A DNA stretch of 64,000 bases from the sequence record NC_052654.1; one strand, written 5' to 3'. Source of the DNA: Escherichia phage vB_EcoM-Ro121c4YLVW. The notes beneath the pieces were generated by a model. The model saw nothing but the letters and a program-made list of their open reading frames with translations, was not told where the DNA came from and searched no databases. The stretch's first letter is position 1; each line of letters begins with the position of its first letter. A program made the translations under genes and the position numbers. Positions 4,428 to 33,761 of this stretch are shown piece by piece.

Positions 4428-4439
4428 ATATCACATGAA

Positions 4440-4458
4440 GCGGGGAATAGTTCCCCGC
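4440..4458 (+). promoter_or_regulatory. 5'-UTR stem-loop in the TerC leader
   Basis: GCGGGGAA-tag-TTCCCCGC forms a perfect 8-bp stem. There is no U-tract and the RBS gagaggag follows. Confidence 0.5.
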
Positions 4459-4475
4459 AAAGAGAGGAGAAAAGA

Positions 4476-5447: not shown

Positions 5448-5453
5448 TAGATG

Positions 5454-5477
5454 AGCCTCCTTCGGGAGGCTATTTTA
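5454..5477 (+). terminator. Rho-independent terminator
   Basis: AGCCTCC-ttcg-GGAGGCT followed by attttat. Confidence 0.75.
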
Positions 5478-5489
5478 TAGGAGAGACTT

Positions 5490-5840: not shown

Positions 5841-6082
5841 AATACTTGTTGGTTGTGTTTGAAAATATTTGTTTTGCAATAGGGTTGTTTGTTGTAATTT
5901 TTGTATTGACAAGCGTAATCAACGGCAGTAAAGTGAGTTTATACCGAGATGGAGAGCAACTTTATTGCTTCTCTGGAGATTTCAAACACAGATGTATTAA
6001 TAGCCAAAACGAGGAAAGCAAATATGAAAAAACTAGCCCTGATTTTAATTGGTTGTATCTTTTTAACAGCTTGCGAGGATGA
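5837..6082 (+). CDS. Possible small membrane protein (uncertain)
   Basis: ATGA overlap with the upstream stop and a hydrophobic N-terminus. However, it overlaps the lipoprotein gene start by 59 nt and contains a promoter-like site. Confidence 0.3.
   Translation: MKYLLVVFENICFAIGLFVVIFVLTSVINGSKVSLYRDGEQLYCFSGDFKHRCINSQNEESKYEKTSPDFNWLYLFNSLRG
5906..5934 (+). promoter_or_regulatory. Sigma70-like promoter upstream of the lipoprotein gene
   Basis: TTGACA (5906-5911), 17 nt spacer, TAAAGT (5929-5934). Confidence 0.4.
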
Positions 6083-6461
6083 AACAAATCCTGCACAATA
6101 CCAACAACCTCCTCAACAATACGCTCAACAAGGATCTGACGGAGATACAACTATTATCAACAATGGTGGCGGTTCTAGTAGTAGCGGTGTTGGTGAGTTT
6201 GCTACAGGTATGTTGTTAGGGCATATGATGAGTGGCGGTAGTAATCGTAGCAGTGGGGATTATAACGATAACAGAACGATTATTAATAAGCATTATAATA
6301 CACCTAAACCGAAAACTAATTTTTATAGTAAGCCTAAACAAGAGATAAAAACTTATGAAAAGCCGAGACAAACTTTTAAAACAAATAGTAGCTATACAAC
6401 TCGTAAATCTTACAATAGCCCTTTAAGTAAAAAGAGTTCATCTCGTAGCAAGCGACGTTAA
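6024..6461 (+). CDS. Lipoprotein with a Gly/Ser-rich middle and a Lys/Ser-rich basic tail
   Basis: Start re-set to the internal ATG. MKKLALILIGCIFLTAC is a signal peptide with a lipobox (LTAC). The RBS is gaggaaag. Confidence 0.7.
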   Translation: MKKLALILIGCIFLTACEDETNPAQYQQPPQQYAQQGSDGDTTIINNGGGSSSSGVGEFATGMLLGHMMSGGSNRSSGDYNDNRTIINKHYNTPKPKTNFYSKPKQEIKTYEKPRQTFKTNSSYTTRKSYNSPLSKKSSSRSKRR

Positions 6462-6475
6462 TAAGGAGAAAAACA

Positions 6476-7069
6476 ATGACAATTTCTATTCGTACTTCCA
6501 TCGTAGGTGTTAAAAGGTTGCCTAATGCTTTGCAAATCACACGCGCTTTGAGGGATACATTCTCTGCTGTGGACGAGCATAAGATGCTTGATAATCTTTC
6601 AAATTGGCCCTATTTCCATTATTTTAAAAATGAAGATGACGAGTTTATAGACGCTGTTTCTTATGGTTATGATTTCGGTAAGGAGGTTTCTGCTGAAGAA
6701 TTTGTAGCTATGGTGTTCCCAAACGGTTTGCCTACTCGCAGTAAACGTAAAAAAGGACCAAAAAACAAGAAACGTGCTACTAATAAAGCTACCATTTTCT
6801 TTACTGATGGCACACAATATACGATTAAAGATTTTGAAGAGGTATCTTATACAGCAGGTGGGAATCTTTCTTTCTACACCATCAAAAAACAAAACTCTAC
6901 GTTCAGCCATGTTTCTAACATGATTGAAATGTTAGTAGAAGATATTGAAAGCGTAGCTGTGTTAGGTATGCATAAAAGCTTTTTAATTACAAATATTTCA
7001 GATTTCAGTGCACGTTTATCTGGTCCTGATTTTGAAACCACGACCACGCATTTCACTTTTAAGGTGTAA
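6476..7069 (+). CDS. Hypothetical protein with a basic patch RSKRKKGPKNKKR
   Basis: RBS aaggagaa. 197 aa with no family motif recognised. Confidence 0.55.
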   Translation: MTISIRTSIVGVKRLPNALQITRALRDTFSAVDEHKMLDNLSNWPYFHYFKNEDDEFIDAVSYGYDFGKEVSAEEFVAMVFPNGLPTRSKRKKGPKNKKRATNKATIFFTDGTQYTIKDFEEVSYTAGGNLSFYTIKKQNSTFSHVSNMIEMLVEDIESVAVLGMHKSFLITNISDFSARLSGPDFETTTTHFTFKV

Positions 7070-7072
7070 GTT

Positions 7073-7663
7073 ATGTATACCGAGAGAGACTTGCAACTCT
7101 TGTGGTGGGAAGTGATGCAGGAAATAAAAGAAGATTTTCCTGTTTACTACAACATGTTACGTGAAGCAGGATATAAAGCTTGTGTTAGAAACAAAGTGAA
7201 TAACTCTTTCGGTTGGTGCAACTACCGAGATAAAATTGTTGTTGTAAATTGGCACTTGCATAAGAACTCTACAAGAGATATGATCGTGGATACAATGAAG
7301 CACGAAATTGCTCATGCTATTGATGGTTGTATGGGTAAGTTTAGTAGACACGGTGCTCATTGGCAAAAACTGGCAGCAGAGTTAGGGGCTAATCCTAAAG
7401 CCACTTCCAAAGAGCCGTTGAACCACGAATATAAATATGTTCTTGTTCTGGTAGATAGGTTTGCGACAAGATGTGTTAGAGGTTATAATCGTAAACCTAA
7501 TCGCATGTACCCAGGTAAGCAACCTAATATGTGGTTGAAATCAGATAAAGAAGGGACCGAAGGAAAATTATGGTTGTATAAATGGGACGATTGGGTTAAA
7601 GTAGCTAAAGAGTACGGTGTTTCACCATATATAAGAGATGCAGAAGAGGAGAATGAAGAATGA
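7073..7663 (+). CDS. SprT-like zinc metallopeptidase-domain protein
   Basis: MKHEIAHAIDG...HGAHWQKLAAELGANP contains the HExxH motif plus a downstream His, typical of SprT-like domains. Confidence 0.75.
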   Translation: MYTERDLQLLWWEVMQEIKEDFPVYYNMLREAGYKACVRNKVNNSFGWCNYRDKIVVVNWHLHKNSTRDMIVDTMKHEIAHAIDGCMGKFSRHGAHWQKLAAELGANPKATSKEPLNHEYKYVLVLVDRFATRCVRGYNRKPNRMYPGKQPNMWLKSDKEGTEGKLWLYKWDDWVKVAKEYGVSPYIRDAEEENEE

Positions 7664-8772
7664 CAAGTCCATTTTTAAAAGCAGCTACTGGCGGTCAGAA
7701 GAAGCCTGAAATGAGCGTATTTGCTGCAACAACAGATGCAAGTAAATCTGTATTCGCTCCAAGCGTGTTAGATGCCAGTCCTGTTTATGCACCAGCGGCA
7801 CCGCAAGAAGTTCCAGTTTTGCCTTCTATGACCCGACAAGAGATCGAAGAGATTGGGGCAGAGGCAGGAACAACCTTGCGTTCCTTGAATGCCGAGGTAT
7901 TAAAACATCAACGTAGTAATCAAGGCGATCAGATGAGTGAACGACTCACAGCTTTGATTAAACAGGCAAAACAACTTGATCCAAACTCTATTAAACAAAG
8001 CAAGGGTATTACTAAACTCATTAAAAAAGTTATGGGTATGAAAGAAGATCTGTTTGGGGAGTTTGATAATGTTAATAACCGTATTGAAGAGTTGGTAAAA
8101 AACCTTCAAATGGATATTCGCAAAGAAGAAGATTCCTTGGTATATCTTGAAAAGCTACATCAAGCTATTGGACAATATGCTGCAAGTTTGAACCGAGATA
8201 TGCAGCTTCTAACAGCAACCTATGAAAAAGAAGAACAAGCTTTGGCTGCTCTTCCAGAAGATGCAGTAGAACAGCGACAAGTGATCCGAGATACTTTGGA
8301 TCTTCTGGAGATTCGTATTGCAGATTTAAAAGCATTGCGCCTACTGTGTGTCCAAATGGGACCGCGTGTACAAGGTATGCAAAAAGTTTCTGCAAGCTTA
8401 ATGCGATCTGCGCGTAACATAGTAAATAATGTTATTCCTGCTTACTCTGCTAACTTCTCAATGTATATCGAGAGCTTACGTCAAATGAAAGCAGCAGAGA
8501 CGCAGAATAACGTTCTTGATGAATTTAACCTGGCAATTAAACTGGGTAGCGATCTTGCCACACAGAATCAGATAGAAGCAGCAGCACTGGCTAACCGTCA
8601 AGTGTTGGATATTGAAACTCTGCGTCACGATCAGGAAAACTTGGTTAAGATGTTGGAAGAAACTAACCGCATCAATACGGAAGCCCGTGCTGCTCGTGTT
8701 GATTATATTAATGAAGTTCAATCTTTGGAAGACGGGATGGTAGCTGCTGTGAAACGAGGGCTTGGTAAATGA
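7660..8772 (+). CDS. TelA-like (toxic anion resistance) protein
   Basis: ATGA overlap with the SprT gene. The 370-aa product is all-helical with a layout like TelA/KlaA/YceH: an N-terminal disordered region followed by long helices, e.g. LTALIKQAKQLDPN, NRIEELVKNLQ. Confidence 0.7.
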   Translation: MTSPFLKAATGGQKKPEMSVFAATTDASKSVFAPSVLDASPVYAPAAPQEVPVLPSMTRQEIEEIGAEAGTTLRSLNAEVLKHQRSNQGDQMSERLTALIKQAKQLDPNSIKQSKGITKLIKKVMGMKEDLFGEFDNVNNRIEELVKNLQMDIRKEEDSLVYLEKLHQAIGQYAASLNRDMQLLTATYEKEEQALAALPEDAVEQRQVIRDTLDLLEIRIADLKALRLLCVQMGPRVQGMQKVSASLMRSARNIVNNVIPAYSANFSMYIESLRQMKAAETQNNVLDEFNLAIKLGSDLATQNQIEAAALANRQVLDIETLRHDQENLVKMLEETNRINTEARAARVDYINEVQSLEDGMVAAVKRGLGK

Positions 8773-8966
8773 GAATCCGTATCTATATAATTGATGAGGA
8801 CATTGGTGTCCGTTATGATGACGAAAAACGATTCGCACCAATGGGAGGCATATATCCCCCAAGTGTTCTAGCAGTTTGTCGTGATTGTTATATTTATGAA
8901 GGTTGTCGTAACTTCCGTAAATTCCAACTCCTTGCAGATATTGACTTCAATGAGGAGGAGGAGTAA
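8769..8966 (+). CDS. Hypothetical small Cys-containing acidic protein
   Basis: ATGA overlap with the TelA stop. Contains CRDCYIYEGC and an acidic tail NEEEE. Confidence 0.45.
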   Translation: MRIRIYIIDEDIGVRYDDEKRFAPMGGIYPPSVLAVCRDCYIYEGCRNFRKFQLLADIDFNEEEE

Positions 8967-9139
8967 TGAAAATATTACGAGTGAATATTGAAACTGCTTG
9001 GTGTGGATGCAATGAGGTTGTGGATATCGAAATTGAAGATGATATGTCTCAAGAGGATATAGAAGATCTTGCCCACGAAACCTTTCAGGACTATTGTAAT
9101 TACGGGTTTCATATTTTAGAGGAGGAAGAAGATGTTTAA
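8966..9139 (+). CDS. Unlisted 57-aa strongly acidic ORF (below the track length cutoff)
   Basis: TAATG overlap with the upstream stop, and its own stop overlaps the next start (9132). Translation by hand: MKILRVNIETAWCGCNEVVDIEIEDDMSQEDIEDLAHETFQDYCNYGFHILEEEEDV. It fills an otherwise empty gap. Confidence 0.45.
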   Translation: MKILRVNIETAWCGCNEVVDIEIEDDMSQEDIEDLAHETFQDYCNYGFHILEEEEDV

Positions 9140-9335
9140 CTACGATAACGATCCTAATATTATCCAGTTAACCCGACAAGAACTGATCACAATCATTGAA
9201 GATGCTTTTATTGATGGTTGGAATACACAAGATAATGACTGGGGTGGACCCGAAGCTTTTCTGGAACATCATAAAGCTTATGGAGAATTTTGTGAAACCA
9301 CTGTAGCTCTTGATAATCTGAAGGAGGGTTTGTAA
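9132..9335 (+). CDS. Hypothetical small acidic protein
   Basis: RBS gaggaggaag. 67 aa. Confidence 0.5.
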   Translation: MFNYDNDPNIIQLTRQELITIIEDAFIDGWNTQDNDWGGPEAFLEHHKAYGEFCETTVALDNLKEGL

Positions 9336-9898
9336 TGGGTTGTTTTAGTTTTTTGTGCAAAGAATCGGGCAAAGCTGCCCTTTCTACTTCTTTCGACGGA
9401 TCACCTTGCTACCTCTTTCTTTTGAAAGACGGTGTTGTTATTGAAGAGATGTATGGCAACTATGATAGTTATGGTTGTGTTTTCTCTGGAAAAGAGGATG
9501 AAAATGGCGTTCGTGAACGGTTCGAATGGGCTATGGATTGGGGTAAGGTTTGTGATTTAATGCATTCCTCAAATCCAAGGGACGGTATTGCTATGGTGCT
9601 GGAAGAGTACTTTACAGGTGAAATCCCTACAGAACAATCTGACGGAGATCCTAATCAAGGTTGGGGTGATGGTGAAGAAGATCCAGATTGTTTTTTCAGC
9701 ACAGAAAAGAATAAGTTTAAACGTGTTGACAACCCTTATCACAAAGTGCATAATACTCTCATTGAAACAGAAGATGACAAGATGGAAATTGAAGAAGATG
9801 ATCCTCTTGTAACACTTCCTATAAGTGAGTTACAAAAGATCACTAAGGAAGCTTACGATTTGGGCTTCAAAATTGGTAGAGGAGGTATGCGTGTTTAG
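9335..9898 (+). CDS. Hypothetical protein
   Basis: TAATG coupling to the upstream ORF. 187 aa with an acidic middle region. Confidence 0.6.
   Translation: MGCFSFLCKESGKAALSTSFDGSPCYLFLLKDGVVIEEMYGNYDSYGCVFSGKEDENGVRERFEWAMDWGKVCDLMHSSNPRDGIAMVLEEYFTGEIPTEQSDGDPNQGWGDGEEDPDCFFSTEKNKFKRVDNPYHKVHNTLIETEDDKMEIEEDDPLVTLPISELQKITKEAYDLGFKIGRGGMRV
9726..9754 (+). promoter_or_regulatory. Internal sigma70-like promoter upstream of small paralog A
   Basis: TTGACA (9726-9731), 17 nt spacer, CATAAT (9749-9754) with TG just upstream. Confidence 0.4.
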
Positions 9899-10169
9899 AT
9901 TCAATATTCAAGAAGAAAAAAGTCAGGATTTACCTATTGCTTTCGAAGATCTTGACGTAGGGGCCACATTCATGTATTATGATGCCTATGAAGACGCAGG
10001 GTTGGATACCTACCGTAACTTGGTGTTCATTAAAAATTCCACAAACAGTGCGATTTGTATTAATGGATCACTAGCACAACGAGGCTATACTCATTGCATC
10101 CCACCAGATACAAATATGGTGGAAGTAGATTTAGAAGTTACCAATATTACACTTAAGAAGGAGAAATAA
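9891..10169 (+). CDS. Small beta-rich protein, paralog A (precedes the vWA gene)
   Basis: Start re-set to the GTG at 9891, 5 nt after ggagg. It aligns with the 11191-11460 product: F.I.E.K...DLDVG.TF.Y..A....GLD....V..K ... .VE.L.VT.ITLK. Confidence 0.6.
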   Translation: MFRFNIQEEKSQDLPIAFEDLDVGATFMYYDAYEDAGLDTYRNLVFIKNSTNSAICINGSLAQRGYTHCIPPDTNMVEVDLEVTNITLKKEK

Positions 10170-10170
10170 T

Positions 10171-10965
10171 ATGTCCGAGAAAATCAGCCTGAAAAAACGT
10201 CAAGAAAACCTTGCTTTCTCTCTGAAAAAGAATAAGAACCTGAATGAAGGTAAGATTGTTCTTCGTGTAGCATGTGCTCTAGATATTTCTGGTAGTATGC
10301 ATGGTCTATATTCTAGTGGGGTAGTGAGTGATTTTGTAGGTAAACTGCTTCCTTTTGGTATGCTGTTCGACGATAATCAACAAATTGATATGTGGGCCTT
10401 CAATACGAGTTCCCAAGAGCTTACTCCAGCAACAGCAGACGTTTACGATGACTATGTTGGTAAATGTATGCGTAATGTTCGTATCGGAGGTGGAACAAAT
10501 TACGCCCCTGTAATGGCAGATATCTACGATGAGTATTTTGGCACTGTTACCAAATATATTACCACTAAACAAGTGGTACAAGAGGAGGCTCCAAAGAAAG
10601 GCTTCTTTAATCGTCTGCTTGGTAAAACTGAAACAGTGTCTGTAGAGCGTGAAAAAGTTGTAGCTGTATCTGAACCAGGTGCTGACGTTACCCCTGGTGT
10701 TGTATTCTTCCAGACGGATGGTGAGAATGGTGATCCTAGTGCTGTTCGTCGTCTTATTGAAGAGAATAAGAATAAACCTATTTATTGGTTCATGGTTGGC
10801 GTTGGTAATGAGAAGTTTGGCTTCCTGAAAGAACTGGCAAATGCTTATGATAATGTTGGTTTTATTGGCATTAAAGATTTAGACTTGACAGATTCAGAGC
10901 TTTATGACAAACTCTTATCTGAAGAGTTCGGAGAGTGGGTTGTTAAAGTAGGTGCTAAAAAATGA
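10171..10965 (+). CDS. von Willebrand factor A domain protein (TerF-C-terminal-type vWA)
   Basis: MIDAS motif ACALDISGSM, downstream GGTNY, and the FFQTDGENGD motif. The N-terminus EKISLKKRQENLAFSLKK mimics the first strand of TerD domains. Confidence 0.8.
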   Translation: MSEKISLKKRQENLAFSLKKNKNLNEGKIVLRVACALDISGSMHGLYSSGVVSDFVGKLLPFGMLFDDNQQIDMWAFNTSSQELTPATADVYDDYVGKCMRNVRIGGGTNYAPVMADIYDEYFGTVTKYITTKQVVQEEAPKKGFFNRLLGKTETVSVEREKVVAVSEPGADVTPGVVFFQTDGENGDPSAVRRLIEENKNKPIYWFMVGVGNEKFGFLKELANAYDNVGFIGIKDLDLTDSELYDKLLSEEFGEWVVKVGAKK

Positions 10966-11210
10966 TCGACGAGCTTGCCTCTCAAGTCGTAGAAAATTAT
11001 TGGCGCGAGAGAGAAGCTTTCATTATGCGCAGTCTCAAAGAGTATTTCATTGGGACTGTGCGAATGGAAGATATTGTAAGTAGAGTAGAGATTCATGTAT
11101 GGCCCGATTATGAAGAATGGGTTGACAAAGAAAATGAAAATGCTATAATTCTTCGTATATACAAACCGGAGATAACATTAGGAGGAAGAAGTGTTAAACT
11201 TCGAAATTGA
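10962..11210 (+). CDS. Hypothetical protein
   Basis: ATGA overlap with the vWA stop. 82 aa. Confidence 0.5.
   Translation: MIDELASQVVENYWREREAFIMRSLKEYFIGTVRMEDIVSRVEIHVWPDYEEWVDKENENAIILRIYKPEITLGGRSVKLRN
11122..11149 (+). promoter_or_regulatory. Internal sigma70-like promoter upstream of small paralog B and TerD
   Basis: TTGACA (11122-11127), 16 nt spacer, extended -10 TGcTATAAT (11141-11149). Confidence 0.5.
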
Positions 11211-11460
11211 TGAGCAAAAAGTAAATAAACGATGCCTTACCATTAAAGATTTGGATGTAGGAGATACTTTCGTCTATGAAAATGCATTTGACGAAAATGG
11301 TTTAGACCTTAGTGAAATCATTGTTTATTTAAAAGTAGATGATGGGGAAAATGATTATTCTGCTGTAGAACTAAACCATCATGCACAATTAGTATCAATC
11401 CAAAACACATCTAAGCTTTTGGAAGTAGAATTGACTGTAACTGGTATTACACTTAAATAA
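11191..11460 (+). CDS. Small beta-rich protein, paralog B (precedes the TerD gene)
   Basis: GTG start after ggaggaag. Paralogous to 9891-10169. Confidence 0.6.
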   Translation: MLNFEIDEQKVNKRCLTIKDLDVGDTFVYENAFDENGLDLSEIIVYLKVDDGENDYSAVELNHHAQLVSIQNTSKLLEVELTVTGITLK

Positions 11461-11475
11461 TAGAGGAGACAAAAG

Positions 11476-12078
11476 ATGACTGATAAAATTTCCCTGAAAA
11501 AAGGCTCTAGCGAAAAAATTTCCCTGAAGAAAGTTGCTCCGGCTCTGAAAGAACTGCGCCTGGAATTCTCTTGGAAATCTGATTCTAAACTGGATCTGGA
11601 TGTAAGTGCACTGGTTTGTCGTCATAATGCCGCTGGCAATCCTGAAATGCTGTCCGCACGTCATCTGGTTTGCTATGCTAACAAGTTTGATCCTGAACGT
11701 TCTACCTTCGCTGGTGACGATGTTCGTGATGGGACTGGCAGCATGGAGCAGATTGATATTACTCTGGCTAAAATCTCTCCTGATGCACAAGAGATTGCCT
11801 TTGTTCTGACCATTGATGATGATACAGGTCTGAAACGTTTTGGTCATGCTTCTGAAGGTATGCTTAAAATCTTCGACTCCGAGCGTAATGTGGAAATTCT
11901 GGATTTTGACTTCCTGGCTCCTGAAGTAGCTGGCAACACAATCTGCCACGTGGCTTCCCTGGTTCGTGAAGATGGAGAATGGAAGCTGAAAGCATATGGT
12001 GTAGGTAAAGCTGGTCTGGATATTTGCGATGTGGTGATGGCCTTCGGTGGTAAAAAAGAATGGTATGAATGTCCATAA
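11476..12078 (+). CDS. TerD-domain protein (tellurium-resistance TerD family)
   Basis: DKISLKKGSSEKISLKKVAP...LDLDVSALVC and the Ca-binding-type loop FAGDDVRDGTGSMEQIDITL match E. coli TerD (VSLSKGGNVSLSK...FDLDASAF...GDNRTGEGDGDDE). 18 of 19 Leu codons are CTG. Confidence 0.9.
   Translation: MTDKISLKKGSSEKISLKKVAPALKELRLEFSWKSDSKLDLDVSALVCRHNAAGNPEMLSARHLVCYANKFDPERSTFAGDDVRDGTGSMEQIDITLAKISPDAQEIAFVLTIDDDTGLKRFGHASEGMLKIFDSERNVEILDFDFLAPEVAGNTICHVASLVREDGEWKLKAYGVGKAGLDICDVVMAFGGKKEWYECP
11485..11528 (+). repeat. 14-nt perfect direct repeat (aaaatttccctgaa) 30 nt apart, encoding the duplicated KISLKK strand
   Basis: Copies at 11485-11498 and 11515-11528, read directly from the sequence. 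Confidence 0.9.
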
Positions 12079-12096
12079 TAATTAACAAATGATTTT

Positions 12097-12116
12097 GAGG
12101 GGGAGAAATCCCCCTC
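12097..12116 (+). terminator. Stem-loop terminator after the TerD gene
   Basis: GAGGGGGA-gaaa-TCCCCCTC, with only a short T run after it. Confidence 0.55.
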
Positions 12117-12177: not shown

Positions 12178-12699
12178 TTGCTGATAAAAAACTTTGTAAC
12201 AGTTGCGTTACTATCCTTAACTGCTTTTACATTTACACCTGTTGTGGCGAAAGCCGAAGCTGCAAACGTAAAAACCGCTAAAGTAGTTCACAAATGTACA
12301 AAGCAATATAATGATAAAATTCTATTAGCTTGTGCAATTTACGCAGAAGGTCGCGGTCTGGGTAAAAAAGGAATGAATGCCGTTGGGAATGTGGTAATCA
12401 ACAGAAGAAATGATGCCTACTTCCCTAACACAGTCAAGGGAGTCTTGTTCCAGAAAGGGCAATTCTCATATGCGAAAACTTTTAACGTGACAGAGAAAGA
12501 TAAGTGGCAGGAAGCAAAAGCAATAGCGGAGCGTTTACTTTATTTAGAGAAACATTTTCCTGAATTGCGGTCTGTTTTAGATGTTACTAAAGGTGCTCTA
12601 TACTTCAAGAAACGGAATATAAGGACACACTGGGAGCGTGATATGCGTCTTGTTTATCGAGATAAAGTGCATGGTTTCTATCTACCAAAGGGGAGTTAA
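12178..12699 (+). CDS. Secreted cell-wall hydrolase, SleB-like (candidate endolysin)
   Basis: TTG start after aaggagg. N-terminal signal or SAR-like segment LIKNFVTVALLSLTAFTFTPVVAKAEA. Core motifs: CAIYAEGRGLG..GMNAVGNVVINRRND.YFPNTVKGV..QKGQFSY. Confidence 0.75.
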   Translation: MLIKNFVTVALLSLTAFTFTPVVAKAEAANVKTAKVVHKCTKQYNDKILLACAIYAEGRGLGKKGMNAVGNVVINRRNDAYFPNTVKGVLFQKGQFSYAKTFNVTEKDKWQEAKAIAERLLYLEKHFPELRSVLDVTKGALYFKKRNIRTHWERDMRLVYRDKVHGFYLPKGS

Positions 12700-12700
12700 A

Positions 12701-12985
12701 ATGCAAGAAGATAATACTGTTGTTGTAGCAAGTTACCTGGTTGTCGGTCTTACCGAAGAGGACGTATACTACACCCGTAAACATTTGGAAGCATACACTA
12801 CTTTGTTTATGGAAGATGAAAAAGATGTAGATAAATATAGCATTGATATGATCAACGACAGTATTTATCCTTGTATGGTTCTTAAAGTAGATGCTGTGCT
12901 GTGGGAGCGTTTTGCAAGGACTCATGATGCTGTAGAATGCTCCGCAGTAATGTCTCAAAACAACATTTTAGGGGAGATTCACTGA
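12701..12985 (+). CDS. Hypothetical protein
   Basis: Start re-set to the ATG at 12701, 2 nt after the hydrolase stop (RBS ggggag). The track extension from 12638 overlaps the hydrolase gene. Confidence 0.5.
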   Translation: MQEDNTVVVASYLVVGLTEEDVYYTRKHLEAYTTLFMEDEKDVDKYSIDMINDSIYPCMVLKVDAVLWERFARTHDAVECSAVMSQNNILGEIH

Positions 12986-13215
12986 TGGGAGAAGTCATTG
13001 AAGTAAATTTTCGCACTAAACAAAAAGTGCAAAAATATGTTGTTATTAAAAACATTTGCGTTGTCTGCTTCAATACTGTAATATACGATTCACGACGCGG
13101 AGAAAACGAAAATGAACCTTACATTGAAATTTCTAAGAACAAAGGTCAATGTATTTGTAAGAACTGTGCAGTAGCTATTAAGGAGGTTGTAAATGAAAAC
13201 GCTTGGGACCAATGA
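12985..13215 (+). CDS. Small zinc-ribbon-like protein
   Basis: TGATG coupling at 12985. Contains CVVCFN...CICKNC (CxxC...CxxC). Confidence 0.5.
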   Translation: MGEVIEVNFRTKQKVQKYVVIKNICVVCFNTVIYDSRRGENENEPYIEISKNKGQCICKNCAVAIKEVVNENAWDQ

Positions 13216-13384
13216 AACTGGCGAGATCTCTCTTCAAGAAGTGACAAACGACAAGCTGATTAAACTACGGGATGTAGCTCGTGACCATCTCCAAGAATCT
13301 TTTAAAGAATATATGGAAGCACGAGATCGTGTCATCCAAATCCAACAAGAAATGATTAAACGTGGGATTGTAGCTGACAGTTAA
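13193..13384 (+). CDS. Hypothetical small helical protein
   Basis: RBS aaggaggt. 63 aa. Confidence 0.45.
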   Translation: MKTLGTNETGEISLQEVTNDKLIKLRDVARDHLQESFKEYMEARDRVIQIQQEMIKRGIVADS

Positions 13385-13400: not shown

Positions 13401-13964
13401 ATGATTTATTATATTACTCCCTATCTGACAGGAAATATCGGCAAGGCTATCAATGAAGCTATTGCCGTTCTTCCAGATGATAGTTGGGTGTGCTTAAGAG
13501 ATACCGATACAATGTTCCTCCTGCCTGATCAACCATCTATGCTTGAAGAGCTTGTTATGTCAAACCCGCCTTTTGATGTAATAGGTGCAACTTGTAACAG
13601 GTTAGGTAGTGGTTATCAGCTTTTCTCTAACCAAATTAACGATGATCCAGATATTCTAAACCATATAGAATATGCTAAGATTGCAAGAGAATATCATAAA
13701 GTGAGTGTTGAAGAAGTTCCTTTCGGAACACCTCTGGCAGGTTTCTTTTTGCTTTTTAGAAAATCATTGTGGAATGAAATTCCTTTCGAAGAAAAATCTA
13801 TCCAATTCGACCTAATTTTCTCTCGCACTTTACATGAAAAAGGAAAGAGGTTAGGATTGATGCGGGGAATGTATCTGTTTCACATTTACAGATTAGGTCA
13901 AACAAATCCTCAACGGTCTATACATCATTTATTACACTGTCACGATCACAGTAAAACTATCTAG
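13401..13964 (+). CDS. Putative GT-A-fold glycosyltransferase
   Basis: N-terminal IYYITPY...NEAI..LPDDSWVCLRDTDTMF has a Rossmann-like start and a DxD-type motif (DTD). Confidence 0.5.
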   Translation: MIYYITPYLTGNIGKAINEAIAVLPDDSWVCLRDTDTMFLLPDQPSMLEELVMSNPPFDVIGATCNRLGSGYQLFSNQINDDPDILNHIEYAKIAREYHKVSVEEVPFGTPLAGFFLLFRKSLWNEIPFEEKSIQFDLIFSRTLHEKGKRLGLMRGMYLFHIYRLGQTNPQRSIHHLLHCHDHSKTI

Positions 13965-13972
13965 GAGAGAAA

Positions 13973-14656
13973 ATGGAAAATATTAAAATCGGAGTGGGTG
14001 TTATCACTGTAGGTGTCCGTCCACTTAAAGACTATCTTGTAACAGATCCACATGCAGATTTTCGAGTATTCAACGATCCAGATCGTAAAGGTGTAGCTTA
14101 CGCCAGGAATGAACTTATGCACCAGTTTTATGAAGAAGGTTATGATTATTGGTTTATTTTTGACGACGATTGCTACCCAATCATGGAGGGATGGGAAACA
14201 TATTTTGTAGATCAAGCTGTCTCTGGAAGATGGGATTTCTTTGGTATGCCGGAGTATTTCAAAGATAAAGTTGTTGGGAGTAAAGGAGAAGTTATTCTCT
14301 GGGAACTTGCAATGTGTCAATTTGCAATGTATTCTCGTGCCGTTGTTGAGAAGATGGGTTATTTCCGCCCTTACACTCACGGCTATGGTTTTGAAGATGC
14401 TGAATGGGTACACCGTTTGAAAGCTGCTGGTTTGAATCAGGGTATTCAGGCAATACCTTGTCCACTTCGTATCATGGCTTATATCCACCCAGACGATGTT
14501 TTTGGAAACAATCCTATGCCTTTTGCTAATCTGACAAAAGAAGAGAAAGAAGCTGCTATTGGCATTAACTGGGAAGAATATAAAGCGTCTTTAGAAGATA
14601 TTAAAAATGGGAAAATCCGAATTTCTTATGAGGAGGCACTGGCACATGTCAAATAA
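13973..14656 (+). CDS. Family-2-like glycosyltransferase (GT-A)
   Basis: IGVGVITVG...GVAYARNELMHQFYEEGYDYWFIFDDDCYP (DDD motif)...FEDAEW. Confidence 0.6.
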   Translation: MENIKIGVGVITVGVRPLKDYLVTDPHADFRVFNDPDRKGVAYARNELMHQFYEEGYDYWFIFDDDCYPIMEGWETYFVDQAVSGRWDFFGMPEYFKDKVVGSKGEVILWELAMCQFAMYSRAVVEKMGYFRPYTHGYGFEDAEWVHRLKAAGLNQGIQAIPCPLRIMAYIHPDDVFGNNPMPFANLTKEEKEAAIGINWEEYKASLEDIKNGKIRISYEEALAHVK

Positions 14657-15593
14657 AAAATGGACTAAACTGAAAATTGATGCAAAACCTCACAGTGGTT
14701 GTGATTATCATCGTATTGTTATACCATTTAACAACAATAATTTTCAGCCTAAGAAAGATGTTGTCGTGTTTAACCGTATTCATTCTAAAGGTGCAGAATA
14801 CGTTTTATCTTTGAAACGTCAAGGTGTTAAGATTGTTGTAGATTTAGATGATTTCTACCAACTTAATCCAGAACATTATTTAGCAAGTCTATACGAGTCA
14901 AACACTCATGCTATTGTAGCTATGGTTAAGCTTGCTGATGTGGTTATTGTGACTACGGAATATTTAGCATATAAGATCCGTCACTTAAATAGGAATGTTG
15001 TTGTGATCCGAAATGCACTTCCTTTTGATAGCGGACAATTCACTTTGTCAAATGATCGTTCATCCGGTACCCCTGTTGTATGGGCTGGCGGTGCTAGTCA
15101 CGAACCAGACTTACGACTAGTCTCTAATACTTTCGATGATGAACTTCTTACTATTGCGGGATATGAAGCATCACAAAGCATCACGGGACAAGAGTGGATT
15201 AAGATTCGCAGAAATTTACCAAATGCCAAATATAAAGCCGCCGTAAAAGATTTAGATAATTACATGAGTGTTTACGAAAGTCATGCTATTGCTATAGCTC
15301 CTTTGGTAGATAATGATTTTAATAATTGTAAAAGTAATCTCAAAATCCTGGAAGCTGGAGCAAAAGGTATTCCGATTGTTTGTTCTAAGGTATTACCTTA
15401 TTTTAACCCTGTAGATGCTCGCGCTGTTGCTTACGCAGAGAATAAAGCAGAATGGCATTACGAAATTGTTAAGCTTCTTCGCAATCCAAACTATCGGGAA
15501 GATCGTGGCTTGTTCTTGGCTGAACATGTTCGAACACATTATAATCTGGCAGATGCAAACGAGTTGCGACGCCAGGTTATTGAAAGTTTGTAG
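14646..15593 (+). CDS. GT-B-type glycosyltransferase, paralog 1
   Basis: Start re-set to the ATG at 14646 (RBS gaggagg). Shares CDYHRIVIPF, VVWAGGASH and SNLKILEAGAKGIPIVCS with the next gene. Confidence 0.6.
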   Translation: MSNKKWTKLKIDAKPHSGCDYHRIVIPFNNNNFQPKKDVVVFNRIHSKGAEYVLSLKRQGVKIVVDLDDFYQLNPEHYLASLYESNTHAIVAMVKLADVVIVTTEYLAYKIRHLNRNVVVIRNALPFDSGQFTLSNDRSSGTPVVWAGGASHEPDLRLVSNTFDDELLTIAGYEASQSITGQEWIKIRRNLPNAKYKAAVKDLDNYMSVYESHAIAIAPLVDNDFNNCKSNLKILEAGAKGIPIVCSKVLPYFNPVDARAVAYAENKAEWHYEIVKLLRNPNYREDRGLFLAEHVRTHYNLADANELRRQVIESL

Positions 15594-15600
15594 GTGAAGT

Positions 15601-16545
15601 ATGGGACAAATAATTCTTGACAATCGTAACGGAATCAATTATAGTGTCTGCGATTTCCATAGGGTAGTGCTGCCTTACTCAAGGCAGTTCTCTTCACAAC
15701 CTAAACACAACGTTTTCGTTTTTAACGGAGTGCCAACAAAAGGTAAAGAGGGCTTTTTAGCCCTTAAAAACCTGGGCTTTAAAATGGTTATGGATTTGGA
15801 TGACTCTTTAGTTATTCCAAAAGGACACATGTTAGAAGGTATTTTTGAATCAGGTATTCGTGAACATTTAAAATGGTTTTTAGAGCACAGTGATCTTGTT
15901 ACAACTACGACACCTGCCTTGCAAGTTGAACTTTCACAATACAATGATAATGTGCACATAATCCCTAATGGACTTCCTTATGATGAAGGTCAATTTGTGT
16001 TGACCCGTGATCGCTACTCCAAAACTCCATTAGTCTGGGCTGGAAGTGAAACACATAAACAAGATTTGGCTATCTTGCCCGATTTTGGTAAAGATCTTAC
16101 AATATGTGGTTTTCGTAGGGATTCTGAAGTTTTAAGTAGTCGTGAATGGTCTGTAATTAGAGAAAATGTAGCACCAACTAGTGTTTATGAAGGTGTAAGA
16201 CCATATGCCAACTACATGGAATCTTACGATGGTCATCAAATCAGTCTTGCACCATTGGTCGATAACGTGTTTAATAATGCAAAAAGCAATCTTAAAATTC
16301 TTGAGGCAGGTGCTAAGGGTTTACCTTTAATCTGCTCTCCTCGTGAGAATTATCATACGCAAGAGTTTAAAGATTTGTTATTCTTTGCTGAAACACTTTC
16401 CGAGTGGAAAGATATTACGGAATACTTATTAAGTGCTCCCGATGTTTGCATGGAGAAAGGATTAGCATTAGCTAAGTATGTCAGGACTCATTATCACATT
16501 GATGTGTTGAATGAGCGTCGTAGACTTTTATTTGAGGAGCTATAA
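15601..16545 (+). CDS. GT-B-type glycosyltransferase, paralog 2
   Basis: CDFHRVVLPY, LVWAGSETH and SNLKILEAGAKGLPLICS. It is a tandem paralog of 14646-15593. Confidence 0.6.
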   Translation: MGQIILDNRNGINYSVCDFHRVVLPYSRQFSSQPKHNVFVFNGVPTKGKEGFLALKNLGFKMVMDLDDSLVIPKGHMLEGIFESGIREHLKWFLEHSDLVTTTTPALQVELSQYNDNVHIIPNGLPYDEGQFVLTRDRYSKTPLVWAGSETHKQDLAILPDFGKDLTICGFRRDSEVLSSREWSVIRENVAPTSVYEGVRPYANYMESYDGHQISLAPLVDNVFNNAKSNLKILEAGAKGLPLICSPRENYHTQEFKDLLFFAETLSEWKDITEYLLSAPDVCMEKGLALAKYVRTHYHIDVLNERRRLLFEEL

Positions 16546-16823
16546 TGATTAACACTTTTGATTTTGAATACACCACTCGTAACGGGAAAGCCTTGGTTGT
16601 GGAGGTGGATTACTATTATGAAGAACCTAATCCACTTTCTCGTGAAAGCGATTGGGATTACCACGGAGGGCTTTTAATTGACGGTATTCGTTTTTATGAA
16701 GGATCTACAGAAGTTTTTGAAAAAGATTTAAATGTAACTGTAGCAGAAATTGCTTTCCAATTTAGAAAGCACATGGAAGAACTAGAAGCAGAATATATGA
16801 TGGAGACTAACGAACCATTTTAA
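16545..16823 (+). CDS. Hypothetical protein
   Basis: TAATG coupling to the upstream gene. 92 aa. Confidence 0.5.
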   Translation: MINTFDFEYTTRNGKALVVEVDYYYEEPNPLSRESDWDYHGGLLIDGIRFYEGSTEVFEKDLNVTVAEIAFQFRKHMEELEAEYMMETNEPF

Positions 16824-19147: not shown

Positions 19148-19942
19148 TTGAGCAAGTTGAACACACTTGATCAATATTACACTAACCCCGCTTATGCGGG
19201 GTTCTTATGTGATAAGATCAAAGAAATTTTTGGAGAGGAAGCTAACTACGTAGAACCATCTGCGGGAGAAGGAGCTTTCTCTTCTTGTTTTAAAAACATA
19301 ACTTCTTTTGATATTGACCCTAAGTTTGAAGATTGTATTGAGGCAGATTTTTTAGCTCAATCTGTTGAGTCTGTTGGTAGCGTAACTGCTTTTGTCGGTA
19401 ATCCTCCATTTGGAAAAAATGCTAGTCTTGCCATTAAATTCTTTAACCATTGTGCTGAAATGCTGGATAACGAAGGTGGTATTTGTTTTATCTTGCCTCG
19501 CACATTTCAAAAAATCTTTTTTGCACACAAACTAAATCCCCATATGCATCTTCTTTACGAAGAAGAATGTCCAAAAGGATCTTTTATTCTTCATGGAGAA
19601 CCTTGGGATGTTCCTTGTGTATTCCAGGTATGGATTAAACGCAACGAGAAGCGTTCTCCCGTTGTTTTAGGAGAGAATCGACTATTCGTATTAGGTAACA
19701 GTAAAGACTACGATATAGCTGTTAGGAGAGCGGGAGCAAGTGCAGGTAGAGTGTTATCAGAAGAAGATTCTTTATCTGAAGCATCTACCTATTTTTTAAA
19801 AGCCTTGACTTCTGATCTTAAAACGCGTATCATTGAGGCTTACCCGTTACTTAAAGCTGAAGCTAGTAAAACTGCGGGAGTAAGAAGTTTAAGTTTAAAA
19901 GAACTTCAGTGGGTTCTGGAGAACATTAGAAAGGAGGAATAG
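19148..19942 (+). CDS. DNA N6-adenine methyltransferase
   Basis: TTG start after aaggagg. Motif I VEPSAGEGAF and motif IV GNPPFGKN (NPPF). Confidence 0.8.
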   Translation: MSKLNTLDQYYTNPAYAGFLCDKIKEIFGEEANYVEPSAGEGAFSSCFKNITSFDIDPKFEDCIEADFLAQSVESVGSVTAFVGNPPFGKNASLAIKFFNHCAEMLDNEGGICFILPRTFQKIFFAHKLNPHMHLLYEEECPKGSFILHGEPWDVPCVFQVWIKRNEKRSPVVLGENRLFVLGNSKDYDIAVRRAGASAGRVLSEEDSLSEASTYFLKALTSDLKTRIIEAYPLLKAEASKTAGVRSLSLKELQWVLENIRKEE

Positions 19943-22900
19943 TGAGTAAGTTTACATGGGATATTGAAGCAAACGGATTGTTGAATAATGACACTATTGA
20001 TTATTTAGCTAGTCCTTATCGTCTCAAAGACACATTTCAAATGCACTGTATTGTCTTAGAGAACCATGAAACAGGAGAAATAGTAGCTTTCCACGATGGC
20101 CCTAAATACATCTTTGATGGGCGTCCTTATGAAGAGTCAGATGGTAAATACACATATGTTCTTAAAGAGTATGTGGCGCAAGATTACACACATTTTCAAC
20201 TAAAAGATTTCCCAGACTTTATTAATCATGAAGGTTATTTTAAAGATAAGCCTGAATATCTGGTTGAAATGGCTGTGGCTCACAACGGTATCAACTACGA
20301 CTGGTTGGCTACAAAACTGTTTTATGGATTAGATTACAGTGTTAAATATAATACGTGGGGCAAAAATAAGGTAAAACTTATTGACTCCTTGATTTTGAGT
20401 AAAGTGTTAAACCCAGATCGAAAGATTGAGGGCAAATCAGGACATAGCTTGGCAGCACTTTCTCGAAAAGCAGGTGGTGATGTAAAAATAGATTTCCGTA
20501 AAGAGATTCCAGAAGAAGATCGATTTAAGACTTTTGCTGCGGATATGCTTTATTACTGTATCTATGACAACAAAGCCAATACGAGCGTATATAATTACCT
20601 TATGGAAGAATGGGGCGATTATGATAAATGGGAAGGTCCATTTGAACTTGAACAACGTGTAGCAGACATTATTACACGCCAGGAACACCGTGGGTTTGCT
20701 TTTAACATGAAGCAAGCAGAAGAGAACCTTGCTTTTTTGGATGCAGAAATGGAGCGTCTTCGTTTACTCGTTGAGCCTATTTTGCCACCTAAACCAGCAA
20801 CAAAAGGTTATCTTAAGGCTTTTATTCCACCTAAGTTGCAAATTAAAAAGAACTTAGAGCCAACTAACCATATGATCAATTTTGCTAAGAAACATGATGG
20901 TCATTTGGAAGAGAGGGATGGCGATTGGTGGTTAGTTATGTTGGGGAAAGAGTGGAAACTGCCAGTTGCAGCAGATGAGCCTCTATGTGATCCTAACATC
21001 CCTGCAACATTGAACGATACAACCCATATTAAAAACTGGCTCGTAGGATTAGGTTGGGTACCGTCTGAATATAAAGATAAAGACTTGACGCTTAAATCTG
21101 GCACCAAAATTAAAAAGAGCGAGGAAGAACTTCAGAAAGGTATTAGAGCTTACGTTGAGCAAACTCTATCTTCTAATTTTTGTCAGGATCGTTGTGATCA
21201 TCTGGAGTGCACACCGGAAACTTTGGAAAGGAAGATTCAAGAGCGTATAGCAAAAGGTAAAGGTCGCGGTCTTAAAGTATTGACTAACCCATGTTTTACC
21301 AAAGGTCAGGAAAAAGAAATTTGTCCTAACCTGCAAGCTTTGGGTGAGAAATTTCCTTATGCTACACAGATTGTAGAATACTTAACGTATAAGCATCGTA
21401 GGAACTCTATTTTAGGTGGCGGTGCTGATTGGGAAGAAGATGAAGAAGATCAAGAATACGATAAAGGTTTCTTAGCCGCAGTAAGGGCGGATGGGCGTAT
21501 TCCTACACCAGCCGCTACATGTGATGCTGCAACCTCTCGTATGAAACATAGATCTGTAGCTAATATTCCTCGTGTCACATCTTTGTTTGGATGGGAGATG
21601 CGTAACTTGTTTGGTGTAGAAGTTCCTAAATACTTCCAGATCGGTTATGACTTCGACTCTTTGGAAGCAAAGATTGAGTCGCATTACTGTGTGCCGATGG
21701 ATGCTCAAGCTTTGACTCGTAAAGGTTGGGTAGGATATCACGACCTGAAGGAAGGGGATGAGATTTTAGGGTACAATGCTGAAACAGGTATGAAAGAATG
21801 GACTAAAGTAAAAGGTAAGGTCTTCTATAAAAATAGTAAGACGTTTGAGATTAAAGGGAAATCACACACTTACCGTGCAACAGCAGATCACCGTTGGTAT
21901 GTTAATACCCGTAGTAAAGGGAATACTTATGTGCCTAAAGTCAGAACAACTGCCGAGCTTTGCACAGGAGATAATATTATTTGTAATGCTCCATTTAACA
22001 TGGAACAAGATCAGGTAAATAGTTTAACTTCTGTTCAACAAGGTAAATGGGATGTTCCGTGGGTAGAGCGTGTAGTTAATATGTCTCATGCCGAGCGTGT
22101 AGCTTTCTTGGAAGGTTTCTTGATTGCAGATGGTTACTGGCATGAACATAAACAAAAACCTGTTTGGCGTTGGGCGCAGAACCCAGGTGAACTTTTTGAA
22201 GCAGCTTTAACTGCCTCGTACCTGGTGCATGGAGGCAATATCTCTGTAGCTTTCAATACAAAAGAGCAGAAAGTAAAAGTGGCAACATTGACTAACCGCT
22301 CTCACATTCCTGTTCAAAGTTTGACTATTGAAGAGTGGGGTGTAGAGGATGTTTGGTGTCCACAAACAGAACTTGGTACGTGGGTCATGCGTCAGAAAGA
22401 CTGCATTACCATCACAGGAAACTGTTGGCGCTACGAACCGGAGCCTCATGAATACTGTAACGCTCTCTTGTTAGAGAAGCCTAACGATGTTCATACCATG
22501 ATGGCAAAACGTATTACAGATACTATTGGGCGTAAATTTGAACGTAGTCCGGCGAAATCTGTTAAATACGGGATCACTTATGGTGCACAAGCAGACAAGG
22601 TTGCTAAAACAATTGGTAGCGATAAATACACAGGGCAACTGGTGTTCGATGCTTTCTGGGAAGCTGCATTCCCACTGGCGCGTCTTAAAGAACGTTTAAA
22701 CGATTTCTGGGTTAAGACTGGTAAACAGTATGTTTTGGGTATTGACGGTCGTAAGGTTCCTACTCGTTCTGCTCACGCGATTCTTAACTCTCTGTTCCAA
22801 AGTGGTGGGGTTATCTGTGCTAAACGTGCAATGGTTATTTATGACGACATGATCGAAGAAGAAGGGCTAAGTGTTGACTTCTTTAAAGATGACTGGAAGA

Positions 22901-33758: not shown

Positions 33759-33761
33759 TAA

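Follow-up and report, generated by a model that had tools for sequence, protein, structure and literature searches.

The window analysed here, a stretch of 64,000 nucleotides, belongs to a Phapecoctavirus, a phAPEC8-like Escherichia coli phage, and carries a cluster of four genes encoding soluble cytoplasmic Leloir-type glycosyltransferases, two of the GT-A type (GT1 and GT2) and a duplicated GT-B (GT3 and GT4). The four same-strand ORFs of the original prediction are all present in the ORF list. GT1 (13401..13964, + strand) specifies a soluble, acidic, minimal GT-A glycosyltransferase of 187 amino acids (pI 6.0) with an invariant D34-x-D36, and is followed by GT2 (13973..14656, +), whose soluble, acidic product of 227 amino acids (pI 5.0) appears, from its invariant FIFDDD and YG(F/Y)ED motifs, to be a GT-A enzyme of the GT2/GT7C type. 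GT3 (14646..15593, +) encodes a basic GT-B glycosyltransferase of 315 amino acids (pI 8.5), the paralog of GT4 (15601..16545, +), an acidic GT-B protein of 314 amino acids (pI 5.7) with a fold like that of GT4-family enzymes and the KSNLKILEAGAKG motif. The GT3 ORF as listed opens at 14607; its start is nonetheless most likely the RefSeq start at 14646, since a GAGGAGG Shine-Dalgarno sequence precedes the ATG there and the ATG at 14607 lacks one. From 14646, the 5' end of GT3 overlaps the 3' end of GT2 by 11 nucleotides.

All junctions between the four genes are tight or overlapping and the run continues into the primase-helicase gene without an intervening terminator-like site, none having been found on the + strand from 10.5 to 17.7 kb, which together suggests that the cluster is co-transcribed through to that gene. 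Transcription is thus probably shared with the primase-helicase gene and not with the late genes; the nearest virion gene is about 8.6 kb away. The predicted location of the cluster is correct, with small ORFs on one side and the primase-helicase, methyltransferase and polymerase genes on the other. Two flanking ORFs, at 12701-13384 and 16545-16823 (the latter encoding an acidic protein of 92 amino acids), were rejected as cluster components or acceptor, being kept only in the large-myovirus lineage. No transmembrane segment was detected in the four transferases or in the products of the two nearest flanking small ORFs (maximum 19-residue hydropathy ≤1.65). The genes are not orphans: all four proteins are already annotated as glycosyltransferases in RefSeq and PHROGs, and some 130 genomes of Stephanstirmvirinae keep the cluster, among them that of phi92 (genes 163-166).

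The division into two GT-A enzymes and a GT-B paralog pair is supported by folds, motifs, the identity between GT3 and GT4 and the distant relatives of GT2. Structure prediction upheld the GT-A assignment of GT1 and the GT-B assignments, while GT2 is placed in GT-A by sequence alone. The model of GT1 shows a single Rossmann-like alpha/beta/alpha GT-A fold, in which D34 and D36, invariant across 23 homologs, directly follow the strand at residues 29-33. In GT2, F61-I-F-D64-D65-D66 and a downstream acidic motif, E141-D142, are invariant among 14 homologs. The protein belongs to phrog_2456 (E=6e-79) and yields Pfam matches below threshold only (Glycos_transf_2, 13.0 bits against a cut-off of 23.3 bits). 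A search with the family profile returned 956 relatives, and a Pfam scan of distant ones detected Glycos_transf_2 in 36/62 (PF00535 at E ≤0.001, best 2e-17) and Glyco_transf_7C in 27/62. GT2 can thus be described, on sequence grounds, as a divergent relative of Glycos_transf_2 and not as a scoring member.

GT3 and GT4 align over 303 amino acids at 42% identity (E=2e-77) and have CD(Y/F)HR, VWAG and KSNLKILEAGAKG in common. These motifs, like the DTD, DDD and C-terminal ones also noted originally, are all present and occupy conserved positions of each family. GT3 falls in phrog_7162 (E=7e-149), with all family-invariant residues kept, and the pair displays two Rossmann domains separated by a cleft. 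Against Pfam Glyco_trans_1_4, Glyco_trans_1_2 and Glycos_transf_1, both proteins score below threshold (GT3 22.6 versus 27 bits, GT4 23.8 versus 25 bits), and many GT-B homologs carry a precomputed PF13524 match. The C-terminal donor-binding E-x7-E motif is altered, with a nearly invariant second glutamate (E235 in LKILEAG) and an invariant K228-S-N at the site of the first. Among structural matches, some fifteen GT4-family enzymes are closer in fold than T4 AGT and BGT, and EarP is absent from the top 60. Neither of the rhamnosyltransferases EarP and WsaF is a close match, and likeness of fold cannot name a donor or an acceptor. When GT1, GT2 and GT4 were compared with the sequences of the PDB, neither single-sequence nor profile queries gave anything usable.

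The original prediction saw no sugar-nucleotide synthesis genes in the window, which is accurate for the window itself, but outside it the genome of a 99.9%-identical relative carries rmlA, rmlB, rmlC and rmlD at 30995-34273, a complete dTDP-L-rhamnose pathway located amid nucleotide-metabolism genes. In this phage lineage the transferase genes co-occur with this phage-encoded pathway: phage-genome matches to GT1, GT-B and RmlC number 104, 105 and 104 in Escherichia, five each among genomes labelled Campylobacter, and three each in Phapecoctavirus and in Justusliebigvirus. The rmlC gene is also present in Klebsiella relatives carrying GT1 and GT-B. This co-occurrence largely concerns one lineage and is phylogenetically confounded. 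In phage ESCO37, rmlA and rmlB are missing and the cluster is kept at 98% identity, a pattern consistent with the host supplying the early rhamnose steps.

Relatives of these genes extend well beyond this lineage, and the four-gene cluster represents an expanded form, specific to this lineage, of a portable phage cassette. The core of the cassette is constant, comprising a GT-B gene and a GT-A partner, while GT1, a hexapeptide acetyltransferase or a methyltransferase may be added. At least 571 viral loci in IMG/VR hold relatives of the cassette; across 35 dereplicated groups, a GT-A gene adjoins it in 20 and an acetyltransferase accompanies it in 10, and in at least 15 of the 35 TerL lies ≤6 kb away, nearly always downstream. 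Carriers include lambdoid and HK97-like temperate phages. In small temperate phages the cassette occupies the late region, between Q and lysis genes, lysis and terminase genes or terminase and portal genes, or just upstream of the terminase. Lambdoid phages have GT2 and GT-B between antiterminator Q and holin, an Sf6-like contig has the cassette between terminase and portal, and a Cellulophaga phage has a gene with a GT1-like domain between its portal and capsid genes. A Serratia prophage retains GT1-GT2-GT-B in unchanged order between lysis and terminase genes, and one Serratia genome contains two prophages, each with a separate cassette. The emphasis originally placed on a replication-gene neighbourhood is misleading, although the location itself is right: unrelated small phages carry the same cassette among their late or packaging genes. 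The small-phage cassettes come without rml genes, so that rhamnose cannot be an inherent part of the cassette. Four recurrent neighbours in environmental phages (c1, c2, c5 and c6) have no Pfam and no informative PHROG match.

The best explanation of these data, albeit one that falls short of probable, is that a short, rhamnose-containing glycan is assembled in the cytoplasm on virion proteins. The enzymes would act one after another, one priming the acceptor and the others extending the chain, to yield a short oligosaccharide that probably contains rhamnose. Donors would be host UDP-sugars and phage-made dTDP-L-rhamnose, with GT1 as a weak candidate for the rhamnosyltransferase. The acceptor would be the phage's own structural proteins and not its DNA, and the particle would leave the cell with a glycan coat, as in mycobacteriophages. 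Placement of the cassette in late operons and head modules fits a product needed at assembly, and the two Serratia prophages with cassettes of their own fit a phage-autonomous acceptor. The junction just upstream of the terminase is, however, a general hotspot for accessory genes, DNA-modification genes among them, and cassette position is therefore weak evidence. Against a virion target stands the location of the Phapecoctavirus genes in the replication region, probably not expressed with the late genes. Literature searches turned up no experiments that address the acceptor of these enzymes, and glycosylated virions are not known to us from any coliphage. A broader proposal, possible but doubtful, is that virion glycosylation is the general role of the GT-B and GT-A cassette, which would be a widespread and horizontally mobile module among phages with Gram-negative hosts; the Stephanstirmvirinae would have extended it to four transferases, with their own dTDP-L-rhamnose and a rhamnose-containing coat on capsid or tail proteins.

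The closest parallel is found in mycobacteriophages, whose soluble glycosyltransferases, sometimes accompanied by methyltransferases, reportedly modify a product of the phage within the cytoplasm. Both systems have soluble phage-encoded transferases with optional methyl- or acetyltransferases, in cassettes scattered over unrelated phage lineages, and the small-phage relatives described above lie in or next to head and packaging genes, often with an acetyltransferase or methyltransferase. Unlike mycobacteriophages, the Stephanstirmvirinae have Gram-negative hosts, and in the phage of the window the genes lie in the replication region. In Bacillus subtilis, the spore surface is glycosylated by a machinery including the GT-A enzyme SpsA, CgeB-type GT-B enzymes (PF13524) and SpsI-L, equivalent to RmlABCD. 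The likeness is at family level only, the Pfam matches of the window proteins being sub-threshold, and the Sps acceptor is the spore crust and not a virion. Giant viruses such as chloroviruses and mimivirus also glycosylate autonomously, and the mimivirus pathway uses UDP-L-rhamnose. They differ in having eukaryotic hosts, whereas a bacterial dTDP route is used here, and there is no close sequence relationship. As precedent for a virion acceptor, an account citing Freeman (2023) describes mycobacteriophage capsid and tail-tube subunits glycosylated at their C-termini (PMC12619734).

The main rival to a virion target is modification of a host envelope glycolipid, which we consider unlikely. The enzymes would work from the cytoplasmic side of the inner membrane and add rhamnose or other sugars to a lipid-linked host glycan, either the LPS core or an undecaprenyl-PP-linked intermediate of ECA or O-antigen. 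The receptors of these phages (ECA, LPS core) would be altered or blocked, so that superinfecting phages are excluded or fewer progeny are lost on cell debris; in temperate carriers the effect would be lysogenic conversion. The basic pI of GT3 is as expected for binding to an anionic membrane, infection by Stephanstirmvirinae needs wecB (ECA) and the LPS core (PMC8594841), and many cassette carriers are temperate phages or prophages. In this last respect the cassette recalls the GtrABC systems of serotype-converting phages and prophage wall-glycan transferases such as TarP, where phage transferases change a surface glycan of the host that acts as a phage receptor. The Gtr system, however, needs the membrane proteins GtrA (a flippase), GtrB (a bactoprenol transferase) and GtrC, and no membrane protein, flippase or Gtr-like component occurs in or beside the cassette; the Stephanstirmvirinae are, moreover, strictly lytic, and with such a phage the LPS or ECA synthesised anew amounts to little beside the existing surface stock. 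A cassette moving among phages of different hosts would require a conserved acceptor. Lambdoid carriers have the cassette on the late-gene strand, immediately upstream of the holin gene, which points to expression during lytic growth and not in lysogens. The two Serratia prophages, each with a cassette of its own in the same genome, would duplicate each other's effect if the role were conversion.

A target elsewhere in the cytoplasm, which we also regard as improbable, would be a host or phage non-structural protein modified for takeover or counter-defence, or a small molecule. The protein version would resemble the way in which EarP rhamnosylates an arginine of EF-P, or the action of glucosylating toxins; the small molecule could be a defence signal or a compound made by the neighbouring Ter-type biosynthetic genes. 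It accords with the solubility of the four enzymes and their probable early or middle synthesis along with replication genes. In the large-myovirus lineage, the cluster always adjoins a Ter-type cluster (ComF-like PRTase, phosphatase, vWA-TerF, TelA), a module for which Anantharaman, Iyer and Aravind (2012) reportedly proposed the synthesis of a nucleoside-like metabolite. No small-phage carrier has the Ter cluster, however; the adjacency is therefore attributed to lineage synteny, and a functional link between the two clusters was rejected. A regulatory modification would hardly call for as much as four transferases and a dedicated sugar pathway, EarP is missing from the leading structural matches, and no candidate substrate was found for a non-structural acceptor.

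For the three acceptor options of the original prediction, phage DNA, virion proteins and the host envelope, the evidence shifts the weights: DNA is now disfavoured, and it is very improbable that rhamnose or other sugars are placed on phage bases to evade nucleases, like the T4 glucose on 5-hydroxymethylcytosine. What speaks for it is the setting, with primase-helicase, N6-adenine methyltransferase and DNA polymerase genes adjoining the cluster and nucleotide-metabolism genes around rml, together with weak Pfam TAGT matches in 13 of 14 GT2 family members and a match of GT2 to phrog_842 (beta-glucosyl-HMC alpha-glucosyltransferase) at 4e-6. The TAGT family (PF20691) comprises TET/5mYOX-associated glycosyltransferases, reportedly described by Burke (2021) and Pyle (2024), which GT2 resembles as a phage GT-A with a weak match near the DxD. 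That match scores 19.2 bits against a cut-off of 27.5 over residues 33-68 only, and both it and the phrog_842 match are below threshold and limited to about 36-40 residues around the DxD. TAGT is matched by just 7 of the 62 wider relatives (best 4e-5), and a TAGT identity was rejected as unspecific, the distant relatives retrieved by exhaustive profile search and scanned against Pfam being ordinary Glycos_transf_2 and 7C proteins.

Unlike TAGT systems, no TET or C5-methyltransferase partner was detected in the genome scan or among recurrent cassette neighbours, including those in lambdoid and HK97-like temperate phages. In the near-identical relative, 45 of the larger proteins, either unannotated or annotated as methyltransferases, were scanned against Pfam and included no TET/JBP, C5 DNA methylase or ThyA-type hydroxymethylase, and the whole-genome annotation holds only ThyX; there is no equivalent of the dCMP hydroxymethylase and dCTPase through which T4 makes hmC DNA. 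Three of the four transferases are acidic, and T4 AGT and BGT are outranked by other structural matches. Furthermore, T4 DNA resists restriction, whereas phi92-like phages, a sister genus sharing rml and the same four transferases, are described as "exceptionally susceptible" to restriction-modification (PMC8594841), and HincII cuts the DNA of Phapecoctavirus and Justusliebigvirus phages (PMC10269720). DNA modification by this system has been raised in two papers, as speculation only, one of which proposed rhamnosylation of hydroxymethylated nucleotides from gene neighbourhood (Olsen et al., 2020; PMC7552041).

The glycosyltransferase annotation was already known; the rmlABCD genes outside the window, the occurrence of the cassette in hundreds of phages and the unspecific nature of the TAGT signal are new. 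The question is thereby narrowed to real enzymes, in a mobile cassette found in hundreds of unrelated phages, for which DNA is an unlikely target. About 6 kb of each member genome is devoted to the four transferases and rmlABCD. If the target is the virion, immune recognition, stability, clearance and pharmacokinetics of therapeutic coliphages would be affected, and to our knowledge this would be the first glycan-coated coliphage virion to be documented; an envelope target would instead reveal a receptor-editing strategy in a lytic phage. Phapecoctavirus and phi92-like phages have a broad host range and have repeatedly been isolated for therapy and biocontrol. For phi92, recent structures are available with cryo-EM maps (PDB 21uy, 21vm and 21wl).

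The four consecutive open reading frames assigned by the original prediction to a single strand at 13401-16545 are present on the + strand of this phAPEC8-like myovirus (Phapecoctavirus, Stephanstirmvirinae), and their identity as glycosyltransferases is sound. Two encode GT-A proteins, GT1 (187 aa, 13401-13964) and GT2 (227 aa, 13973-14656), and two encode GT-B proteins, GT3 (315 aa, 14646-15593) and GT4 (314 aa, 15601-16545). All of the motifs quoted in that prediction have been recovered and correspond to the conserved positions of each family, with D34-x-D36 of GT1 invariant in 23 homologs and both FIFD64D65D66 and YG(F/Y)E141D142 of GT2 invariant in 14. The paralogy proposed for GT3 and GT4 was likewise borne out, the two proteins sharing 42% identity (E=2e-77) as well as CD(Y/F)HR, VWAG and KSNLKILEAGAKG, and for GT4, as for the majority of its homologs, PF13524 is the best-matching Pfam family. 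The Pfam matches of GT2 itself are all sub-threshold, comprising TAGT (19.2 bits), Glyco_transf_7C and Glycos_transf_2. An exhaustive profile search for GT2 yielded 956 cluster representatives, and among 62 more distant relatives that were sampled, Glycos_transf_2 was matched by 36 and Glyco_transf_7C by 27, with TAGT matched weakly by only seven, so that the TAGT signal has been rejected as unspecific. No transmembrane segment has been detected in any of the four proteins, three of which are acidic, GT3 being basic. Two metagenomic homologs of the 14646-16545 pair (P0013 and P0015) are chimeras with a GT3-like N-terminal half and a GT4-like C-terminal half, which could derive from recombination between tandem paralogs or from assembly artefacts. 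There is no novelty at the level of annotation, as RefSeq and PHROGs already label all four proteins 'glycosyltransferase'; the cluster belongs among phage Leloir glycosyltransferase cassettes, and what is added here is its link to rhamnose genes, the picture of a portable cassette and a downgrading of the DNA hypothesis.

The region 13401-16545 shares 99.9% identity with Escherichia phage vB_EcoM_3A1_SA_NWU, in whose record the window corresponds to approximately 58.9-121.3 kb on the reverse strand, and is found at 95% identity or more in 63 phage records, with 69 matching records overall. Some of the matching records bear the names of Campylobacter, Acinetobacter, Pseudomonas and Klebsiella phages; their identity to the coliphages here is about 98%, and their host labels are doubtful. 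The true start of GT3 is almost certainly at 14646 and not at 14607, since a GAGGAGG Shine-Dalgarno sequence precedes the ATG at the former position, where RefSeq also places the start, and none precedes the ATG at the latter. Junctions between the four genes are tight or overlapping, and no + strand terminator-like site occurs between 10.5 and 17.7 kb of the window, so co-transcription with the primase-helicase gene that follows them is probable. Upstream of the TerD gene, at 11122-11149 (+), is a promoter that matches the sigma-70 consensus perfectly (TTGACA, 16 nt, TATAAT, and the TG of an extended -10 element); it may be the start of a long transcription unit containing the glycosyltransferases, as the first + strand terminator-like site after it is at 17716. 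Upstream of the cluster, at approximately 4400-12100 (+), lies a Ter-type cluster with a TerC membrane protein, TelA and TerD, and, as seen in the near-identical relative, ComF-like PRTase, vWA-TerF-like, SprT-like and NT5C/HAD phosphatase proteins. The stretch with TerC, TelA, vWA, SprT and TerD keeps its synteny with the glycosyltransferases in Klebsiella relatives, and the Ter-type cluster is absent from the small phages that carry the cassette. Between the two clusters, a 173-aa protein (12178-12699, +), annotated as 'endolysin' in relatives, has a hydrophobic, signal-like N-terminal segment and a likeness by eye to SleB-type cell-wall hydrolases, and its gene is distant from the terminase-proximal spanin gene.

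Sugar-nucleotide synthesis genes had been described as missing from the window, which holds for the rml (dTDP-L-rhamnose pathway) genes. In the near-identical genome, that of a phage with 99.9% identity, the complete pathway (rmlD, rmlC, rmlA and rmlB) is found at 30995-34273, adjoining glutaredoxin, class Ia ribonucleotide reductase and ThyX genes. The pathway had already been noted in phapecoctaviruses and phi92-like phages, with the guess that its role is the rhamnosylation of hydroxymethylated nucleotides (Olsen et al., 2020; PMC7552041). In a phage genome collection, the counts of GT1, GT-B and RmlC agreed closely, at 104, 105 and 104 for Escherichia phages, five each for Campylobacter-labelled phages and three each for both Phapecoctavirus and Justusliebigvirus, the carriers of these sets including phi92 (genes 163-166) and the BASEL phages EmilieFrey, JohannJBalmer and PaulScherrer. 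In Klebsiella relatives that are further removed, the corresponding site has just GT1 and a single GT-B, and rmlC is likewise present in these phages. Phage ESCO37 is without rmlA and rmlB, its retention of rmlC and rmlD being implied and not stated (PMC10269720); its glycosyltransferase cluster shows 98% identity, a case that fits host supply of the first two steps. Support from this co-occurrence for a putative tie between the glycosyltransferases and rhamnose is modest, because it comes largely from one lineage.

Homologs of the GT-B proteins have been found well outside the large-myovirus lineage. In Serratia sp. M24T3, a prophage-like contig carries counterparts of GT1 (hhalign E=1.7e-63), GT2 (1.8e-50) and GT-B in unchanged order, flanked by the lysis cassette on one side and by HNH, terminase and HK97-type capsid genes on the other; GT2 and GT-B are located between antiterminator Q and holin/lysozyme genes in lambdoid contigs, and between terminase and portal in an Sf6/P22-like contig. 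A Cellulophaga siphovirus encodes, between its portal and capsid genes, a protein of 407 aa whose C-terminal domain is GT1-like, adjacent to a methyltransferase. The Serratia genome (IMG/VR UViG 2531839312) has two prophage contigs (L021 and L024) with different versions of the cassette, GT1+GT2+GT-B and GT2+GT-B. A scan of IMG/VR revealed at least 571 loci with relatives carrying the KSNLK[IVM]LE motif, 80 of which were analysed; after dereplication, those from outside the large-myovirus lineage formed 35 groups. A GT-A gene is adjacent in 20 of the 35, a hexapeptide-repeat acetyltransferase is present in 10 and a class I methyltransferase in four, and a large terminase lies within 6 kb in at least 15, almost always downstream. 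From these neighbour counts, the constant core of the cassette is a GT-B and a GT-A, with GT1, acetyltransferases and methyltransferases as optional members, and the four-gene cluster of the window is an expanded cassette whose GT-B has been duplicated. Small ORFs on either side of the cluster were rejected as cassette parts, being conserved within the large-myovirus lineage only. A large clade of small phages among environmental contigs (L036-L091) has a conserved block directly upstream of the terminase genes, in the order c1 (~160 aa), c2 (~80 aa), c6 (~120 aa), optional acetyltransferase and GT-A, GT-B, and c5 or a methyltransferase; c1, c2, c5 and c6 matched nothing in Pfam and nothing informative in PHROGs.

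As to the acceptor of GT1-GT4, it is tentatively suggested, in preference to the other options, that the cassette products would glycosylate the phage's own structural proteins. This reading is favoured because five independent small-phage contexts place the cassette in a late or head-packaging region, because sugar-tailoring enzymes are its frequent companions, because the possession of a separate cassette by each of the two Serratia prophages fits a phage-autonomous target, and because of the mycobacteriophage precedent, in which, by Freeman's 2023 account, capsid and tail-tube subunits reportedly bear glycans at their C-termini. No experimental paper on the acceptor was found in the literature. 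A suggestive parallel to the set of the window phage is the Bacillus subtilis spore surface, a protein shell within a cytoplasm that is decorated by SpsA (GT-A), CgeB (a PF13524-type GT-B) and homologs of RmlABCD. Counting against virion proteins, the window genes belong to the replication region, with the nearest virion gene about 8.6 kb away; accessory genes in general tend to accumulate upstream of the terminase, and glycosylated virions are not known to have been reported for any coliphage. The window's major capsid protein (57379-58380, -) and tail sheath (53403-54776, -) have near-identical solved counterparts in phi92, namely 21uy (gp124 capsid) and 21vm and 21wl (gp130 sheath), these PDB entries being recent high-resolution virion structures from the sister genus.

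The main rival, somewhat improbable, is that the enzymes act at the inner membrane to remodel a lipid-linked glycan of the host, either the LPS core or ECA/O-antigen intermediates, glycans which are receptors of these phages (PMC8594841). It would be consistent with the predicted structural resemblance of the GT-B proteins to PglH, PimA, WaaG and WaaB and with the basic charge of GT3, but no membrane component is present and the lifestyle is strictly lytic. Another cytoplasmic acceptor, be it a small molecule or a protein of host or phage, is about as unlikely. Known phage DNA glycosylation requires a hydroxylated base, and the idea that a modified base is made elsewhere in the genome was not upheld: a scan of the near-identical genome that covered 45 larger proteins, unannotated or annotated as methyltransferases, detected no TET/JBP, C5 DNA methylase or ThyA-like hydroxymethylase, ThyX alone being present there. 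DNA is thus the least likely acceptor, and a very improbable one, given this missing route to a hydroxylated base, the unspecific TAGT signal of GT2, the finding in BASEL that phi92-like phages, carriers of the same glycosyltransferases and rml genes, are 'exceptionally susceptible' to restriction-modification 'despite a putative dTDP glycosylation machinery' (PMC8594841), the cutting of both Phapecoctavirus and Justusliebigvirus DNA by HincII (PMC10269720), and the occurrence of the cassette in ordinary temperate phages, with neither TET nor C5-methyltransferase among its recurrent neighbours.

Outside the window, a Pfam scan of hypothetical proteins from the relative OR062524.1 (L002-L004) detected NADAR, Macro domain, resolvase, RdgC and proteasome-like proteins, the NADAR and Macro domain proteins being associated with ADP-ribose processing and possibly with counter-defence. 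Its small proteins annotated as 'DNA methyltransferase' gave no methyltransferase-family match at E<=0.001, and its ThyX is unusually long (332 aa), with a modest Thy1 match (5e-8). Within the window, the DNA polymerase I ORF (19942-23274) encodes 1110 aa, compared to 865 aa in ESCO13 and 3A1, owing to an in-frame insertion of ~730 bp at 21691-22420 that is absent from the nearest relative. This insertion is probably an intein, as it has a weak, sub-threshold match to Pfam Intein_splicing (E=0.004).
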